A stretch of 34,296 bases of DNA, taken from assembly GCA_018901625.1 (NCBI GenBank), contig JAHIEM010000078.1, forward strand, positions 1 through 34,296. The letters run 5' to 3'. This stretch comes from Nanobdellota archaeon (GTDB taxonomy: Archaea > Nanobdellota > Nanobdellia > Pacearchaeales > GW2011-AR1). How positions within the stretch are numbered: the first letter of the stretch is position 1; every line of letters begins with the position of its first letter. The position numbers were made by a program, and so were the translations under genes. Shown piece after piece: positions 7,959 through 26,602 of the stretch. A model generated the notes under the pieces. It was not told the origin of the DNA and did not search any database. It was given only the letters and a program-made list of their open reading frames with translations.

Positions 7959-8029
7959 TGCGCCACCCGGGAATTGAACCCGGTTCCCTTCCTTGGCAAG
8001 GAAGAATTCTACCGGTAAACTAGCAGCGC
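7959..8029 (-). tRNA. tRNA-Gly (anticodon GCC)
   Basis: Minus-strand read: GCGCTGC TA GTTT ACCGGTA GAAT T CTTCC TTGCCAA GGAAG GGAA CCGGG TTCAATT CCCGG GTGGCGC A. 71 nt, 7-bp acceptor with two G-U pairs, canonical T-loop, no encoded CCA. Confidence 0.85.
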
Positions 8030-8644: not shown

Positions 8645-8715
8645 GGGCTCATAAGCTAGCGGTAAACTGACTCGTTTACACCGAGTATTCCGAGGTTCAA
8701 CTCCTCGTGGGCCCA
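8645..8715 (+). tRNA. tRNA-Val (anticodon TAC)
   Basis: GGGCTCA TA AGCT AGCGGTA AACT G ACTCG TTTACAC CGAGT ATTC CGAGG TTCAACT CCTCG TGGGCCC A. 71 nt; acceptor, anticodon and T stems pair, with one C-A mismatch in the D stem. Confidence 0.8.
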
Positions 8716-21515: not shown

Positions 21516-22217
21516 ATGAACAACTCAGAACTAAAACAAGCTGGTTTAACTGAAAACGAGAGCAGAGTTTATCTTGCACTAATAGACCTAGGCCCTAGTT
21601 TAGCAGGCCAGATATCAAGAAAAACAGGAATGCACAGAAGAACAGTTTATGATACTTGTGAAATGTTAATTAAAAAAGGTCTAGTGGGATATATCTTGAA
21701 AAATAACAGAAGATTATTCCAAGCTAGCAATCCAGAAAGAATCATAGACATACTCAGAGAAAAGCAAGATATACTTGCCCCATTCATCTCCCAATTGTCA
21801 CAGAAATTTTCAAGTACTAAAGAAAAAGAAGAAACAAATTTCTACAAAGGAAAAGAAGGATTAAAAACTGTATTCGAAGACCAGCTAAACTCTAAGGAAA
21901 TATTAATCCTTGGAGCCAGTCCCAAAGCCTATGAAGTTCTTCAATTCTATTTCAAATGGTATGACAAAGCAAGAAAAGAAAAGAAGATTCACGCAAGAAT
22001 AATCTCCCACAGCAAAGATATCAAGCGAATTCCTTTAGCAGAGATAAGATATCTCCCAGAAAAATACTCAAACCCAGTTTCAGTTAATATTTACCAAGAT
22101 AAAGTTGCCATAATTCTCTGGGCTCAAACCCCATTGGCAATTGTCATCAAGAATAAAGAAATCTCAGAAGGACATAGAATCTATTTTGAGCTGATGTGGA
22201 AAATAGCCAAGAGTTAA
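21516..22217 (+). CDS. TrmB-family transcriptional regulator
   Basis: N-terminal wHTH LTENESRVYLALIDLGPSLAGQISRKTGMHRRTVYDTCEMLIKKGLV plus a TrmB-type C-terminal domain. TATA-like gatttaaaaac about 25 nt upstream. Confidence 0.75.
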   Translation: MNNSELKQAGLTENESRVYLALIDLGPSLAGQISRKTGMHRRTVYDTCEMLIKKGLVGYILKNNRRLFQASNPERIIDILREKQDILAPFISQLSQKFSSTKEKEETNFYKGKEGLKTVFEDQLNSKEILILGASPKAYEVLQFYFKWYDKARKEKKIHARIISHSKDIKRIPLAEIRYLPEKYSNPVSVNIYQDKVAIILWAQTPLAIVIKNKEISEGHRIYFELMWKIAKS

Positions 22218-22634: not shown

Positions 22635-22934
22635 TTAATGCCTGATTTTCAACTTTCCATTCATAGCCAAAGAATGTTCAGTTTCAACATTCCTGAATCT
22701 CTCTTCAATATGCAAAAGCCTGTCAACCTTCCTTTCAGTCACATCTATTCCATTCTTTATTTTCCCAAGCTTGTAAGCCGCGCCAATTAGAGACAAGCCA
22801 GCACCAAAGTAAGGCAGCATTTCAACCCAGATTGCAGAATGAATAATTCCAAGCGCTTTCAGCAAAGCCCAAAACAATATAAGCAAAGCTCCAATTAACA
22901 ATACAACATCCCAAAAGTCCCAACTTCTTGCCAT
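22635..22934 (-). CDS. Small membrane protein (about 99 aa)
   Basis: Two to three hydrophobic helices (WDVVLLIGALLILFWALL, LPYFGAGLSLIGAAY). The first ATG is at 22934; the track start at 22952 is a TTG. Confidence 0.5.
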   Translation of the reverse strand: MARSWDFWDVVLLIGALLILFWALLKALGIIHSAIWVEMLPYFGAGLSLIGAAYKLGKIKNGIDVTERKVDRLLHIEERFRNVETEHSLAMNGKLKIRH

Positions 22935-22980
22935 AATTAAAATATGGTTCAATCATGTGAACTACCATAACCTAACATTT

Positions 22981-24135
22981 TCATGTTGAGGTTGTGGCTT
23001 CTGCTTTCATAGATGCTTCTTGCTGAACTAATTGTCCAGTATTGGAAGCTTTCTCCAGCGAGGCAAGTTCCTTGCCTCTAGCCAAGATATTTATTGCAGA
23101 ATTGTAATCTCTTGGAAGTTCTCCATTGCATTTCTCACAGCAAAATTGCCTTTGCCATAAGAATAGCTTTCTGTTTCTATGCCCGCAGAAATTACAATCC
23201 CTCGTAGTGTAAGCAGGGTCTACATCTTGAACTACACAACCAGCGTTTTCAGCCTTGTAGTGTAGATACATAGAGAGTTTGCCCCAGCTCGCATCTGCGA
23301 TATTTTTAGCATTATAAGAAATTCCTATTAGATTCTTTATATTCAGTTTTTCAATGGCAATAAATTTATTTTCTTTGATTAGCTTTGTTGATAATTTATG
23401 TATAAAATCATCTCTTGCATTTGCTATTCTTTCGTGAATTTTAGCAACTTTTATTCTTGCTTTTATTCTGCTATTGCTTCTTTTCTCTTTCTTTGATAAA
23501 GATTGCTGTGCAATTTTTAATTCTTGATGATAATTGTCAAAATGTTTTGGATTTTCATAAGCATTTCCATCGCTGTCATAAATATAATTTTCTATTCCAA
23601 CATCAATGCCAATCTCTCCAATTCCACAAACTCTTTTAATTACATTGTCAGTAACAACAGAAGCATACCATCTTCCAAGAGATTTCTTTATTGTAATGCT
23701 CTTTATGTTTCCTTCAACTTGCCTATGCAGTTTGATTGGAATCTCGCCAATTTTTGAAAGCCATAATATCCCTTTCTTTGCTTTCAAATGCGTGAGAGAA
23801 AATCCAGATTGATTGTAAGTGAAAGTCTTAAACCAATTTTTACCTTTGAATCTTAGTCTACCAACTTTATGCCCCTGCTTTTTTCGTTGTGAAAGTGATG
23901 ATAGATTGCCAAATAATCTTTGATTTTCCATCTGTAAAACTTTTGAATGAACATTATCCATTTGAGGATTTACAACTTTCAAATCTAATAAGAAATTTTG
24001 TATTTCGTTCTTTGTATATCCTTCATTCAGTTCGGCAAGAAGATAATTGTAAGTTTGTCTGCAAACTTCTTTAGCAATTTCTAACTTTTCTACTTCTGCT
24101 TTCTTTGGATACAATCTGAATTTATATGTTATCAT
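22981..24135 (-). CDS. tnpB: TnpB (IS605 OrfB-family RNA-guided nuclease)
   Basis: N-terminal YKFRLYPKK. RuvC-I IGIDVG, RuvC-II IAIEKL, zinc ribbon CNFCG...CEKCN, RuvC-III RDYNSAINI. Confidence 0.9.
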   Translation of the reverse strand: MITYKFRLYPKKAEVEKLEIAKEVCRQTYNYLLAELNEGYTKNEIQNFLLDLKVVNPQMDNVHSKVLQMENQRLFGNLSSLSQRKKQGHKVGRLRFKGKNWFKTFTYNQSGFSLTHLKAKKGILWLSKIGEIPIKLHRQVEGNIKSITIKKSLGRWYASVVTDNVIKRVCGIGEIGIDVGIENYIYDSDGNAYENPKHFDNYHQELKIAQQSLSKKEKRSNSRIKARIKVAKIHERIANARDDFIHKLSTKLIKENKFIAIEKLNIKNLIGISYNAKNIADASWGKLSMYLHYKAENAGCVVQDVDPAYTTRDCNFCGHRNRKLFLWQRQFCCEKCNGELPRDYNSAINILARGKELASLEKASNTGQLVQQEASMKAEATTST

Positions 24136-24259
24136 TATATTTTTTTATGTCTATCTCAACATAATCTCCTTCTTTTATTTTCATTTTTTGTAATATCGGC
24201 TTATCGATTATAACTCCTAAACTTTGAGCTATTTTTACTACTTTTTTAGTTATTTTCAT
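24122..24259 (-). CDS. AbrB/SpoVT/MazE-like small protein (45 aa), not in the ORF track
   Basis: Hand translation: MKITKKVVKIAQSLGVIIDKPILQKMKIKEGDYVEIDIKKYNDNI. A typical swapped-hairpin motif (..LGVIIDKPILQKMKIKEGDYVEI..). Its 3' end overlaps the tnpB start by 14 nt. Confidence 0.55.
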   Translation of the reverse strand: MKITKKVVKIAQSLGVIIDKPILQKMKIKEGDYVEIDIKKYNDNI

Positions 24260-24411
24260 ATTATAACTATAATACTATCCTTTATATACCTTTCTATTCC
24301 AATTCATCCATAACCTAACTTCTAAAGTCCAGGATATGGACTTCTTGGAGACTAGGTTAAATAATCTTCTTTCTCAGCAAGATTTATTAATCTGTTTCTT
24401 CTTAAGAAAGA

Positions 24412-25221
24412 ATGAATCTTAAAAGAGGAATCGGCATAGTTTTAATCTTAATTTCAGGAGCAATAGGCTGGACAAATACAATTACTGGGGGAGTGATAGG
24501 AGTAAGCTCAAGCCCGGGTCTGAATATTCTGACAGTTTTAATCTTCATTGCCGGGATGATTCTAGTTCTGACTGAAAACTTAGAAGGGAGACTGCACTCA
24601 ATGATGACTTCTAAACAAAGAGAGAAATATGGGCAATTGTCAGAAGGCGAAAGAGAAGCATACCAAAAAAGCCTGAGAAGATATCAAGAAAGAAATATGA
24701 AAAGATTTGACAAATCTTACTATTCAAAGAGGGTCAAGGAGCTGCTTTCTCATGAAGGAGATGCTTGGATTGCTCTAGGAGAAGTTCCGGGAGTAGTTAA
24801 AGAATTGAATAAAAGAGGGTATATCGCTGAACACAGAGTAAACGAAGCAACACTCCACCTTTCAACAGGGGTATACAAAAGAAAAGAGGATGATTATGAG
24901 AATGGAAATGCAAATGTTCCTTACAGAAGGATACTTCACATAGAAATATCTGGAAGAGGCAAGAAAAAGGGGATAACAAAACACTTGCTCGTAAGCCGAG
25001 ATCCTTCAGATGAGAGAATAATAAATCAGGCAGGAATTGATGATTCTGGAGAGAGAATAAAAAGAATTCCATCAAAAGTTTATTCAATTGATGAACTAGG
25101 AAGTCCAGTCTATCCCGAGATAGGAATTCCGAAAACAGTTATTCTAGAAAAAGAATATGAAGAAGGAAGAAAGTCAGCTGCAAAGAAAAGATCTCGGAGA
25201 CAATACGCCAATCAAGTCTAG
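24412..25221 (+). CDS. Membrane-anchored hypothetical protein (269 aa)
   Basis: Two N-terminal TM segments, then a charged soluble region with a K/R-rich tail. Its 3' end overlaps the convergent rtcB-like gene by 48 nt. Confidence 0.5.
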   Translation: MNLKRGIGIVLILISGAIGWTNTITGGVIGVSSSPGLNILTVLIFIAGMILVLTENLEGRLHSMMTSKQREKYGQLSEGEREAYQKSLRRYQERNMKRFDKSYYSKRVKELLSHEGDAWIALGEVPGVVKELNKRGYIAEHRVNEATLHLSTGVYKRKEDDYENGNANVPYRRILHIEISGRGKKKGITKHLLVSRDPSDERIINQAGIDDSGERIKRIPSKVYSIDELGSPVYPEIGIPKTVILEKEYEEGRKSAAKKRSRRQYANQV

Positions 25222-26115
25222 ATATTGCCTGATAGCCGGATAAACTTCTTCAATTTTTCTATAGCAGTCTGGATGCTCAGATTGGATGTTTTTATCTCTA
25301 ATAAAACTCGGAATGAAAACTCTCTTTCTTAAATCAGTAAAATCAAAATCTCTGCTCTTAGCAGAGCTTCTTGAAATCTTTCTTCCAGTACCGTGGCACA
25401 TAGAATTCTCTAATTCAACAATCTGTGGTTTAGCTCTAACAATTAAAGCATCTCCGCCCATTGAAGAAGGAATCACAGTTATCTCACCAGGCAGTAATTT
25501 AATTGCGCCTTTTCTATAAGTTACTTGTTCATCATCTAATTCTACAGTATTATGAGGATGATTAGAAACAATCTCCATTCTGTTCTTAGCCATGCTCTGA
25601 ATAAGATCTAGAATATTTTTCCTGTTTTGTAACCCAAAACCAATAAGTCTATCATAAACCCCCATAAATCTCCCTCCAGAAACACCATGCGCATAAACCT
25701 GTCTTCCTAATTCCCCACTCCCGCTATGAACCAGAACAAGGTTATCCTCCGCTTGAAGACCTACCTCGCTATCTTCAGCAATCTTTACAGCTTCATAAAA
25801 AGTAATAAAATGATTCCCTCCACCAAGACTTCTAAGCTCAGAACTAGAAGATTTTAGTCTAGAAGCAGCATTATGAGTCAAATACTCTAAGCCTTCCAAA
25901 GGCCTTTCAAACTTAGCAAGTGTCATCCCACATCCAATATCCGGCCCAAGATAATCTGCCTGGACTTCATGACTCATTCTATCATAAACACCAACAACCC
26001 CCACAGGCAACCCTTCTCTTCCAGGCGAGTAATCAGGCAAGACTATCATTTTCAGTAATCCTTCTTTGCTTCCCCCAAATCTAAGCGGCTTGTCTGATAA
26101 ATTCATAAATTCCAT
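25174..26115 (-). CDS. rtcB: Miniature RtcB-family RNA ligase (about 313 aa)
   Basis: Ordered RtcB motifs: GPDIGCGM, LGGGNHFITF, VHSGSGELGRQV, HPHNTVE, YRKGA...VIPSSMGG, MCHGTGRKISR. The first ATG is at 26115; the track start at 26145 is a TTG. Confidence 0.8.
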   Translation of the reverse strand: MEFMNLSDKPLRFGGSKEGLLKMIVLPDYSPGREGLPVGVVGVYDRMSHEVQADYLGPDIGCGMTLAKFERPLEGLEYLTHNAASRLKSSSSELRSLGGGNHFITFYEAVKIAEDSEVGLQAEDNLVLVHSGSGELGRQVYAHGVSGGRFMGVYDRLIGFGLQNRKNILDLIQSMAKNRMEIVSNHPHNTVELDDEQVTYRKGAIKLLPGEITVIPSSMGGDALIVRAKPQIVELENSMCHGTGRKISRSSAKSRDFDFTDLRKRVFIPSFIRDKNIQSEHPDCYRKIEEVYPAIRQYLDLIGVLSPRSFLCS

Positions 26116-26116
26116 T

Positions 26117-26602
26117 TTATCTTGCTCCCCCCGACAGCTCTTCAAGCTGTTTTAAAAGTTGTGAAATCACTCCGCAAGTTGCTCCATTCTTAGGCACAGT
26201 GAATCTTCCTCTCCCGCCAAGTTTAATAACAAGTTCGTCAGGCTCAATCATTATAAAAATATTATGACTAGATTTTTGTTCAATTGCTAACTCAAGACAG
26301 CATTCAGTTACCGGAACTCTAGAACATACAAATAAATCTAACTGAGAAACATAACTCTTGCTATTAATAACTCTCTGGAACAATTCAGGAGACTGCAAAA
26401 CACCAACACCAGCAAAAAACCCGTATCTAACTAAAGAAGTTGGAGCAAAAGGAAATTGTATTGTTCTTTCATACAACGGGCTTGTTTCATCAATTCTCCT
26501 GTTAGTCTGCAGCACTTTTCTAGCAGGAACCCTATATCCCCAGTTATCAGCCCAGCTGACAATCTGCGCTTCTTCAGGTGTCATTATCTCGTTTTGGCTC
26601 AT
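26117..26602 (-). CDS. Hypothetical protein (161 aa) in the RtcB operon
   Basis: ATGA overlap with the upstream gene; its stop lies 1 nt before the rtcB ATG. No motif recognised and it is not archease-like. Confidence 0.55.
   Translation of the reverse strand: MSQNEIMTPEEAQIVSWADNWGYRVPARKVLQTNRRIDETSPLYERTIQFPFAPTSLVRYGFFAGVGVLQSPELFQRVINSKSYVSQLDLFVCSRVPVTECCLELAIEQKSSHNIFIMIEPDELVIKLGGRGRFTVPKNGATCGVISQLLKQLEELSGGAR

Follow-up and report, generated by a model that had tools for sequence, protein, structure and literature searches.

TnpB, the ancestor of Cas12, is encoded by one of the most abundant genes in prokaryotes. The control of its expression in native hosts has only begun to be studied, so far in a single 2026 preprint, which showed that the bacterial ribbon-helix-helix (RHH) protein Arc represses IS605 promoters (Moon et al. 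2026, 10.64898/2026.09.24.754181). Genes for small RHH or AbrB/MazE proteins adjoining tnpB were described in 2023 (PMC10691335; 10.1101/2023.11.20.567912). The window analyzed here, a stretch of 34,296 nucleotides from a Nanobdellota archaeon (contig JAHIEM010000078.1), contains a tnpB gene preceded by an overlapping open reading frame (ORF) of 45 codons, and the question raised by this locus is what so small a protein, resembling AbrB-type DNA-binding proteins, would do at the head of a nuclease gene. A sequence-only reading of the window had assumed that TnpB elements carry only TnpA and/or TnpB plus an omega-RNA, a view made out of date by the three reports above; its proposal that the small protein is a regulator is still the best reading of the sequence.

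Ends, copies and content of the element

The survey of copies covered one MAG of DPANN type (1.21 Mb, 85% complete), in which about ten copies were found in all and at least nine were aligned. The multi-copy alignment contained nine left ends (LE), eight right ends (RE) and one mini-element, located on different contigs and surrounded by unrelated flanks. The left end was placed at 24361 (TTTAA) and the right end at 22957 (…GGTAGTTCAC), and similarity among the copies stops sharply at 22957/22956. Because these ends derive from at least nine copies, the 45-aa ORF can be placed inside the element. The stretch from 24361 to 22957 (minus strand) belongs to the IS200/IS605 family, as a TnpB-only, IS1341-like element that lacks tnpA and is present in several copies in its DPANN-type archaeal host (Table 1).

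Table 1. Features of the element copy in the window, in the direction of transcription.
Feature	Positions	Strand	Basis and remarks
TTTAA, probable TAM/target site	24357..24361	-	Directly 5' of the left end; 10/10 genome copies
Left end (LE) with subterminal hairpin	24299..24356	-	Multi-copy alignment and ssDNA folds
Archaeal-type promoter AATAGAAAGGTATATAAAGG	24279..24298	-	Conserved whichever regulator is present, also in other genomes
Perfect palindrome TATTATA-GT-TATAATA, candidate operator	24259..24274	-	Overlaps the predicted start of transcription and the first base of the ATG
AbrB/MazE/SpoVT-like protein gene (predicted cradle-loop half-barrel, GD-box), 45 aa	24122..24259	-	First gene of the element
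tnpB	22981..24135	-	384 aa; RuvC D178/E262/D343 and zinc ribbon; 14-nt overlap with the 45-aa ORF
Omega-RNA-like scaffold, five helices	22957..23078	-	Shares sequence with the 3' end of tnpB and stops at RE; covariation
Right end (RE)	22957..22997	-	Hairpin and invariant tail TAGTTCAC ending at 22957; second 12-mer inside
Predicted guide ATGATTGAACCATATTTTAA	22937..22956	-	Similarity of copies ends at 22957/22956; position by analogy with TnpB systems

The 12-mer CCATAACCTAAC occurs at exactly 22965–22976 and 24308–24319 (two matches, against 0.06 expected by chance), as had been reported from the sequence. Rather than forming an independent bracket, it is the 3' arm that two subterminal hairpins, one in LE and one in RE, have in common, an arrangement typical of IS200/IS605. 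The LE hairpin common to all copies consists of the arms TCCATATCCT (24340–24331) and AGGTTATGGA (24316–24307), followed by the conserved sequence GATGAATTGG. The larger palindrome previously noticed at this end does fold as single-stranded DNA (-8.8 kcal/mol, z = -3.0), but its GAAGTCC/GGACTT portion is specific to the window copy. At the other end, CCACAACCT (22997–22989) pairs with AGGTTATGG (22973–22965) to form the RE hairpin (22997–22965); within it, AACAT/ATGTT forms an inner stem with a GAAA loop, and the tnpB stop codon falls in the hairpin loop. The smaller palindrome proposed at 22944–22970 exists, but it straddles the junction between element and flank and is absent from the other copies. 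Both hairpins are found conserved in every copy and carry compensatory changes in relatives; the RE tail GTAGTTCAC persists as far as elements from Aenigmarchaeota, in which TnpB identity is down to 50%. Terminal inverted repeats are absent, no target-site duplication was seen in the flanks of the aligned copies, and the LE and RE hairpins are similar, as is typical of IS200/IS605.

TTTAA is invariant at all ten left junctions in the genome, and the sequence further upstream is unrelated among the copies. Other genomes have relatives that keep the motif, with a variable base next to it. Since no empty site was recovered (no relative with the same flanks was found at the DNA level, no MAG contig joins the flanks, and the right flank was on no metagenome contig searched), we infer that TTTAA is probably the target site or transposon-adjacent motif (TAM) rather than part of the element. 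Family members that lack tnpA are mobilized in trans by a Y1 HUH TnpA; no cognate tnpA was found in the 85%-complete MAG. Its two Y1_Tnp genes (on contigs C48 and C62) have flanking hairpins unlike those of the element, and both share about 25% identity with tnpA from a related element, L061.

The assignment of tnpB as an intact 384-aa gene was confirmed by the ORF, by Pfam and by alignment to ISDra2. The product matched OrfB_IS605 (1.3e-22), Cas12f1-like_TNB (9.5e-19) and HTH_OrfB_IS605, all three above their cut-offs, and comparison with the PDB gave E = 2e-39 to the ISDra2 TnpB structures 8bf8, 8exa and 8h1j. The catalytic residues lie in the motifs GIDVG, IAIEKL and RDYNSAINI and align to D191/E278/D361 in ISDra2 numbering; the zinc-ribbon cysteines (CxxC...CxxC) are C314, C317, C333 and C336.

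An omega-RNA scaffold had been expected over the 3' end of tnpB, and a covarying structure in the last 122 nt of the element bears this out. RNAalifold applied to 12 related elements returned 36 pairs, half of which (18) show compensatory changes; pairing was kept in 94.6% of cells, compared to 34–43% when the partners were slid, and none of 500 shuffles reached the observed values. A long-range GAAC/GTTC pairing was dropped, the first broad alignment having mis-registered the first hairpin. The search against covariance models, also suggested beforehand, returned no omega-RNA or other family from Rfam 15, either at gathering thresholds or at a permissive E-value, where there were chance matches only. 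By analogy with characterized TnpB systems (PMC8612924), from which its position is taken, the guide would extend from 22956 to about 22937, and would cover the 5' edge of the neighboring gene for a membrane protein with two transmembrane segments, in agreement with the earlier prediction that it reads into the start of that gene.

In its general plan the element resembles ISDra2/IS608-type IS200/IS605 elements (Karvelis et al. 2021, PMC8612924), with the same TnpB domain order and catalytic triad, near-identical LE and RE subterminal hairpins, a 5-nt motif 5' of LE, a structured RNA that lies over the tnpB 3' end and stops at the RE boundary, and neither inverted repeats nor target duplication. 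It differs from them in having no tnpA, in a scaffold that matches no Rfam 15 family, and in the added regulator gene and candidate operator.

The 45-aa gene and its predicted fold

The reported 14-nt overlap between the small ORF and tnpB was confirmed (24259..24122 and 24135..22981, both on the minus strand). Low dN/dS, 79 clusters of homologues and conserved linkage to tnpB indicate that the 45 codons are a real gene under purifying selection. We considered the possibility that the frame is a functionless chance ORF in an AT-rich leader, as its very short length, its absence from the annotation and a richness in lysine and isoleucine such as AT-rich DNA would give might suggest. This is contradicted by pairwise dN/dS values of 0.04–0.30 (seven loci, with dS near saturation) and by the homologues, which form 79 clusters at the 90% identity level, are 70–100% identical to the query, come from many metagenomes and share the invariant residues M1, K5, S13, G15, I17, D19 and E35. 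The precise placement of the frame relative to the TATA box and its family-level similarity to AbrB/GD-box proteins also speak against a chance ORF, which we regard as most improbable. In all 14 TnpB contexts that were opened, tnpB lies directly downstream of the AbrB-like gene; the sole exception among the contexts opened was L034, in which the downstream gene is NUMOD3 endonuclease-like.

The small protein had been credited with a clear AbrB/MazE motif. As a single sequence it matches Pfam MazE_antitoxin (PF04014) weakly, with 18.0 bits and E = 0.0028, below the 24.7-bit cut-off. Two other family members that were searched gave no PF04014 match, and one database homologue (P0046) has a precomputed one. 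Sequence matches in the PDB were the AbrB-family protein Sso7c4 (5itm/2l66) and SpoVT, again weak (E = 0.006–0.15), with Sso7c4 the best natural match (0.007–0.05), and a profile search returned designed DPBB half-barrels with a GD-box at 4.5e-5 and AbrB at 0.036. The AbrB assignment is thus marginal by single sequence, yet consistent across the searches. An AF2 monomer model of moderate confidence (pLDDT 67.5) has a strand-helix-strand topology, and its best Foldseek matches were homodimeric mk2h/DZBB half-barrel peptides (weak E of about 0.3, probability 0.94). The fold class is likely a cradle-loop half-barrel, with AbrB as its tentative subtype; the protein is AbrB/GD-box-like rather than ribbon-helix-helix. 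Such a 45-aa half-barrel should homodimerize into a DNA-binding fold of the AbrB/MazE/SpoVT type. The predicted protein would then be like Sso7c4 and the stand-alone archaeal SpoVT/AbrB binders (PMC3159460; PDB 2l66, 5itm), which are homodimeric swapped-hairpin proteins that are about 50 aa long and lack a C-terminal domain, although Sso7c4 is a chromosomal, chromatin-type protein that is not transposon-borne, and the similarity to it is marginal.

Promoter, candidate operator and alternative regulators

The TATA box (24288–24281) is preceded by a purine-rich, BRE-like stretch and lies 21 nt before the ATG. In archaeal promoters, the spacing from TATA box to start is used to place the transcription start, and from this geometry and the 21-nt distance the transcript of the 45-aa gene would be leaderless. 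The palindrome over the predicted start is unique in the window (one match, against 0.02 expected). It is AT-rich in an AT-rich genome, and initiator or start-site constraints could also conserve sequence at its position.

Copies of the element fall into two types, those with the AbrB-like gene (type A) and those with a DUF7557 gene in its place (type B). There are three type-A and six type-B copies in the genome. Loss of the small ORF from other copies had been named as an observation that would count against its role; no copy in this genome lacks one, but six of the nine carry a non-homologous gene, and close relatives in other genomes (L012–L014) have no small ORF, so that the regulator is dispensable. 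In more distant relatives the same slot holds a zinc-ribbon ORF or is empty. The type-B protein matches Pfam DUF7557 at 36.5 bits (cut-off 25), and its AF2 model consists of two helices, for which Foldseek returned nothing; we call it RHH-like by pattern only, on the basis of Pfam DUF7557, one weak VapB match and source labels. Some type-A loci have a DUF5679 gene upstream, which was rejected as part of the element, being a host gene outside LE.

The TATA box is common to both types. In type A the ATG is always abutted by TATTATA-NN-TATAATA, and in type B there is always a direct repeat with a period of about 11 nt (TATTGTGTAT twice, or GTTATGT twice in L028 and L071). Operator type co-varies with regulator type. 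With up to one mismatch, the palindrome was found genome-wide at all three type-A promoters and at two unrelated sites, and both operator-type motifs are essentially confined to element promoters. The extra genome-wide matches to the operator and RE-tail motifs (C40, C41, C68, C8, C98, C122, C21, C34 and C92:1383) were discarded as unrelated sequence. In type-A loci of other genomes the palindrome is conserved and the adjacent 5–6 nt vary, and it also accompanies the AbrB-like gene outside the TnpB context, in L034.

The promoter, candidate operator and regulator gene form a portable cassette that is exchanged between near-identical copies in one genome. Cassette identity is 56–61% between types and 80–85% within a type, compared to 77–87% for the sequences on either side, whatever the type. 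In the TnpB tree the window copy (type A) is the sister of the C148 copy (type B) with support of 100/99, and the regulator label changes at least six times among 19 rows. The pairing of AbrB or RHH genes with tnpB was already known in archaea in 2023; here, sister copies within one genome carry an unrelated mini-regulator together with the matching site.

Read from 5' to 3', the proposed layout would be TTTAA as the probable TAM, the LE hairpin, a BRE/TATA promoter, the candidate palindromic operator and a leaderless AbrB-like gene, followed by a closely coupled tnpB with the omega-RNA scaffold within its 3' end, the RE hairpin, and a guide derived from the flank.

Possible roles of the small protein

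We consider it likely that the AbrB-like protein is the autorepressor of a cassette at the element's own promoter, analogous to the Arc protein of bacterial IS605 elements. DNA binding and repression by it are inferred. Bound to the palindrome at the start of its own transcript, the protein would repress the one promoter from which the 45-aa gene, tnpB and probably the omega-RNA would be transcribed, keeping nuclease and guide levels low; acting in trans, it would control all copies with the same operator. A precedent is the RHH protein Arc, which binds IS605 promoters and represses them (10.64898/2026.09.24.754181). Like Arc in bacterial IS605 elements and IStrons (Zedaveinyte et al. 2023; Moon et al. 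2026), a micro-protein of at most 50 aa that is often unannotated and encoded beside tnpB within the IS, the protein is encoded within the element ends and is accompanied by a co-varying palindrome on the element's own promoter, where Arc has a repeat or palindrome site. Relatives of both also occur beside homing-endonuclease genes. Promoter repression is experimental for Arc and is proposed here from sequence. The two differ in fold (RHH in Arc, an AbrB-like half-barrel predicted here), in host and promoter, which are archaeal here (BRE/TATA, leaderless), and in gene order, since Arc is paired with tnpA opposite tnpB, whereas the window gene is co-directional with tnpB, overlaps it and belongs to an element with no tnpA.

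The same gene order has been interpreted as a toxin–antitoxin-like pair, in which the small protein would bind TnpB and block RNA-guided cleavage, and TnpB would become toxic once the labile inhibitor was lost. In clade RIIIr-4 (Altae-Tran et al. 2023, PNAS, PMC10691335), a small AbrB/MazE or RHH gene lies immediately upstream of archaeal tnpB, with both small-protein folds in the same position, as here. AbrB/MazE and RHH are also classic DNA-binding folds of antitoxins, the small gene and tnpB are tightly coupled, and database labels name one homologue "MazE antitoxin" and one type-B homologue "CopG antitoxin". Operators in their own promoters are likewise bound by autoregulating antitoxins, and such sites are compatible with a toxin–antitoxin pair. 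However, the proteins, at 42–45 aa, consist of the DNA-binding half-barrel and nothing beyond it, with no C-terminal toxin-binding extension, and very close TnpBs exist without a partner; a type II pair would have a toxin-neutralizing segment and a toxin never found alone. Three unrelated small proteins precede near-identical TnpBs, as a promoter module would readily allow and a specific inhibitor hardly would, and the AbrB and DUF7557 genes, together with their respective operators, are also found ahead of nuclease-like genes of the NUMOD3 and HNH kinds. Nor does the window element share the traits of the published clade, which is described as immobilized and as having the RuvC-III Asp changed to His: the window's TnpB keeps Asp343 (RDYNSAINI) and with it D-E-D, and there are at least nine copies with clean LE and RE junctions. 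The hosts differ as well, being euryarchaeal and crenarchaeal for RIIIr-4 and DPANN-type here, with relatives labeled Woesearchaeota, Nanoarchaeota, Aenigmarchaeota and Pacearchaeota. The evidence favors a promoter cassette, and we regard a toxin–antitoxin role as unlikely.

Alternatively, the protein could act at the left end as a cofactor of transposition or RNA biogenesis (with TnpA and the LE hairpin, or in omega-RNA production), or as an activator of the promoter. The candidate site is about 35 nt from the LE hairpin, some RHH proteins activate (cited in 10.64898/2026.09.24.754181), and in the relative L060–L067 the same LE is followed by a DUF7557 gene directly upstream of a Y1 tnpA–tnpB pair. 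Against this, the position of the site between TATA box and start codon is the classic one for steric repression in archaea, the same cassettes serve genes with no hairpin ends (L034, L071), and the MAG yielded no cognate tnpA and two Y1 genes with different hairpins. A cofactor or activator function seems to us quite improbable.

Returning to autorepression, a more tentative extension, which we think possible though doubtful, is that regulator–operator cassettes act as "immunity types" of the IS, a role comparable to that of heteroimmune repressor regions in lambdoid phages. All copies that share an operator would be silenced in trans by the matching small repressor, which would control copy number, and a swap to an unrelated pair (AbrB with palindrome, DUF7557 with direct repeat, zinc ribbon, or none) would allow escape from the resident copies and a new burst. 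The footprint of such a process would be seen in the presence of three type-A and six type-B members of a single IS family within a genome of 1.2 Mb, in the breakpoints of the mosaic, which lie at the TATA box and at the start of tnpB, and in the reuse of the same cassettes before HNH and NUMOD3 nuclease genes.

The control proposed here would mean that DPANN archaea use the solution known from bacteria, with a different DNA-binding fold. Active mobility and a canonical nuclease argue against the earlier reading of archaeal AbrB/RHH–TnpB pairs as immobile toxin–antitoxin systems. The locus also offers a compact TnpB of archaeal origin, for which the omega-RNA scaffold is defined and TTTAA is the probable TAM, and the two natural, putatively orthogonal micro-repressor/operator pairs could serve as small regulatory parts.

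Ends and copies of the element

The window is contig C106 of its MAG (G000; 1.21 Mb, 155 contigs, 85% complete). BLAST of the interval 22900–24400 against this MAG revealed two full copies of the TnpB element, two more that are nearly full but run off the end of a contig, and numerous fragments of either end. When the junctions were aligned, all ten left ends began with TTTAAC/G and all nine right ends finished in GGTAGTTCAC, and the flanks beyond were unrelated between copies, with no target duplication seen in them. The window copy spans 24361–22957, its first base being 24356 instead should TTTAA be the target motif, and the small ORF preceding tnpB lies well within the ends set by this alignment. 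Because TTTAA is retained in relatives although the base that follows it varies, we read it as the probable TAM. A search for an empty site found none: the flanks had no DNA-level counterpart in relatives, were not joined on any contig of the MAG, and the right flank was absent from the metagenome contigs.

A 12-mer, GTTAGGTTATGG, had been noted as bracketing the two genes. It occurs exactly at 22965–22976 and 24308–24319 (two matches vs 0.06 expected), but it is simply the 3′ arm common to the subterminal hairpins of the left end (LE) and right end (RE). Subterminal hairpins with a shared arm are the hallmark arrangement of IS200/IS605 ends. Across copies, TCCATATCCT pairs with AGGTTATGGA in the LE, and CCA(C/T)AACCT pairs with AGGTTATGG in the RE, followed by the invariant tail TAGTTCAC. 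Relatives with another RE stem (CCCCATCC/GGGTGGGG) show full compensation, and their LE stems are also C-rich/G-rich. The long LE palindrome described earlier folds well in the window copy (z = −3.0), but is partly specific to that copy. The smaller palindrome at 22944–22970 spans the element/flank junction and is absent from other copies.

Many IS200/IS605-type elements, of TnpB as well as TnpA kind and not otherwise related, have a short motif, GGGATGAAT or GGATGAATTG, just after the LE hairpin (in G000 at window 24306–24300, C62:~1410, C67:~2860 and C135:~1100; also at the loci L013, L018, L021 and L027). At locus L014 (2330–2500), two LE types stand in tandem ahead of one tnpB, in the order L013-type LE, window-type hairpin, TATA box, which suggests end replacement or nested insertion.

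Two independent mini-elements of 57–59 nt were also observed (G000 C84:7687–7745 and L059:13083–13140, minus strand). They consist of TTTAA, the 5′ part of the LE with the 5′ hairpin arm, a loop, the shared AGGTTATGG arm and, directly after it, the RE tail TAGTTCAC, and may have arisen by deletion from one 12-mer to the other, or may represent minimal single-hairpin mobile derivatives. The right flank of the C84 mini-element is also that of a full-length RE on contig C118, so the population seems to contain the two alleles side by side. An unrelated repeat of ~80–95 nt adjoins one RE copy of the element (G000 C55:313–407), with further copies, 89–94% identical, on C113, C142, C107 and C92.

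The nuclease and its predicted guide RNA

The window TnpB scored above the Pfam thresholds for OrfB_IS605, Cas12f1-like_TNB and HTH_OrfB_IS605, and matched the solved structures of ISDra2 TnpB (E = 2e-39). In the structure–sequence alignment, its GIDVG, IAIEKL and RDYNSAINI motifs fall on ISDra2 positions 191, 278 and 361, which form the catalytic triad (PMC8612924), so that the protein retains D178, E262 and D343. The zinc-ribbon cysteines C314, C317, C333 and C336 are present as well, in agreement with the sequence-only reading of an intact RuvC D-E-D site and zinc ribbon. Two more TnpB paralogues in G000 (C67:2911–3981 and C135:1024–2), ~35% identical to the window protein, have LE hairpins and TATA boxes of their own and no upstream small ORF. 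At one locus (L025/L035/L036), tnpB is broken into ORFs of 71 and 309 aa, with the AbrB-like gene and palindrome upstream still intact.

No Rfam family matched the omega-RNA of the element. Alignment of twelve related elements yielded an omega-RNA-like structure of five helices over the last 122 nt (23078–22957), in which 18 of the 36 pairs show compensatory changes. Paired cells amounted to 94.6%, compared to 34–43% with the partners slid, and none of 500 shuffles reached the observed values. The tail GTAGTTCAC is kept even where TnpB identity falls to ~50%, in elements from Aenigmarchaeota. By analogy with characterised systems, the predicted guide would correspond to the flank from 22956 to ~22937 and would cover the 5′ edge of a two-helix membrane-protein gene, consistent with the earlier suggestion that it reads into the start of that neighbour. 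In the window copy only, the flank past the RE (ATGATTGAACCATA, within 22944–22970) and the RE tail (TATGGTAGTTCA) have complementary sequences, so that the would-be guide could pair with the 3′ end of the scaffold; this may be chance, or a handicap to the omega-RNA of this copy.

A small, probable half-barrel protein encoded ahead of tnpB

The ORF list reproduces the 45-aa ORF and its 14-nt overlap with tnpB, as first read from the sequence.

Coordinates of the element genes, candidate operator and neighbouring genes in the window
Feature	Coordinates	Strand	Remarks
AbrB-like ORF, 45 aa	24259..24122	minus	ORF list; overlaps tnpB by 14 nt
tnpB, 384 aa	24135..22981	minus	ORF list
Perfect palindrome TATTATA-GT-TATAATA	24274-24259	minus	candidate operator; between TATA box and ATG
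tRNA gene	7959-8029	minus	ordinary neighbour
tRNA gene	8645-8715	plus	ordinary neighbour
TrmB-family regulator gene	21516-22217	plus	ordinary neighbour
Putative RtcB-like ORF	25174-26145	minus	sequence motif only; ordinary neighbour

A search of 5.8 billion proteins returned 79 clusters of homologues (70–100% identity), all 41–63 aa long, with M1, K5, S13, G15, I17, D19 and E35 invariant. Across seven loci, dN/dS was 0.04–0.30, with dS near saturation. The small gene is real, and a chance ORF is very improbable. Four of the proteins were looked up at 15 places in varied genomic settings, and tnpB lay directly downstream at 14; the sole exception was L034, with a NUMOD3 endonuclease-like gene in that position.

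As to the proposed AbrB/MazE motif, the single sequence gave weak matches to the AbrB-family proteins Sso7c4 and SpoVT (E = 0.006–0.15) and a match to Pfam MazE_antitoxin that stayed below threshold. The family profile matched designed double-psi half-barrels via the GD-box (4.5e-5) and AbrB proteins (0.036). An AF2 monomer model had moderate confidence, and its best Foldseek matches were homodimeric half-barrel peptides. We conclude that the protein is probably a half-barrel of the cradle-loop class, which would have to form a dimer, and that the AbrB/MazE/SpoVT type is its most likely assignment.

Exchangeable cassettes and a proposed autorepressor

The conserved AATAGAAAGGTATATAAAGG lies 21 nt upstream of the small-gene ATG (TATA box, 24288–24281), a geometry that would imply a leaderless bicistronic mRNA. 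The palindrome is unique within the window and is kept in type-A loci (those with the AbrB-like gene) of other genomes, where adjoining bases vary; genome-wide, with at most one mismatch, it occurs at 3/3 type-A promoters (C106, C92 and C38) and at two unrelated sites. Six other copies in G000 (type B: C148, C132, C134, C140, C141 and C83) encode a non-homologous protein of 39–43 aa (MKQRTNIQIEHKTLEKLKKLRITKRETYDEIINRLMK..), which scored above the Pfam threshold for DUF7557, has at least 123 homologue clusters, and is putatively RHH-like in fold, judging by pattern and source labels. Their promoters have the LE and TATA box of type A, with a direct repeat of 11-nt period (two copies of TATTGTGTAT) replacing the palindrome in 6/6.

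The cassette of promoter, operator and small gene is 56–61% identical between types and 80–85% within a type, while its flanks are 77–87% identical between types. The TnpB tree joins the window copy and the type-B copy of C148 as sisters (100/99 support). Elements with no small ORF (L012–L014), and elements from Aenigmarchaeota that have a zinc-ribbon ORF of 47 aa, are scattered among the other branches; the occupant upstream of tnpB changed at least six times among 19 rows. Because the divergence between types is concentrated in the cassette and the tree mixes types, the small-gene slot appears to be swappable, with whole cassettes exchanged between sister copies in one genome.

Each with its own repeat motif, the DUF7557 cassette also precedes a tnpA–tnpB pair behind the same LE (L060–L067) and an HNH-like gene (L071), and the AbrB gene precedes the NUMOD3 gene of L034. 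At L034 (2440–3357), the AbrB-like gene and palindrome lie 4 nt upstream of the NUMOD3 gene (244 aa), and at L071 (1940–3004) the DUF7557 gene and GTTATGT repeats lie 4 nt upstream of the HNH gene (294 aa); both are surrounded by strings of short unannotated genes, viral- or plasmid-like in look. L060–L067 are one locus in eight samples, with a composite element (e.g., L061:1940–4080). Its first part, from the LE and TATA box through the direct-repeat operator to the DUF7557 gene, is that of type-B copies. Next come another LE-like hairpin, which has a TATA box of its own, a Y1 tnpA and a tnpB that is only distantly related (28% identity); the RE at its far end (…GGTAGTTCAC) is very similar. 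Nested insertion is one possible origin, and the element may instead be an autonomous relative.

The simplest model fitting all the evidence would be a portable promoter–operator–autorepressor module by which expression of a selfish nuclease gene is held down, the small protein probably acting as a repressor of the element promoter. The function proposed here is the one shown experimentally for the RHH protein Arc in bacterial IS605 elements (10.64898/2026.09.24.754181). An inhibitor or antitoxin role, following the toxin–antitoxin reading offered for archaeal RHH/MazE-TnpB pairs (PMC10691335), fits less well and is unlikely, because a tail for binding a toxin could not be accommodated in the protein, TnpBs that are almost identical occur with any of three unrelated partners or with no partner, these cassettes also stand in front of other nuclease genes, and the window TnpB has a canonical triad in a plainly mobile element. 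A cofactor of transposition or RNA biogenesis, or an activator, is likewise an unlikely alternative to the repressor.

The pairing of a small AbrB or RHH gene with TnpB was already known (PMC10691335; 10.1101/2023.11.20.567912; 10.64898/2026.09.24.754181). What is added here is that DPANN archaea have an AbrB-type version, in a TnpB element whose mobility is demonstrable and whose catalytic triad is canonical, that regulator type co-varies with operator type, and that sister copies of one genome have exchanged the cassette as a whole.
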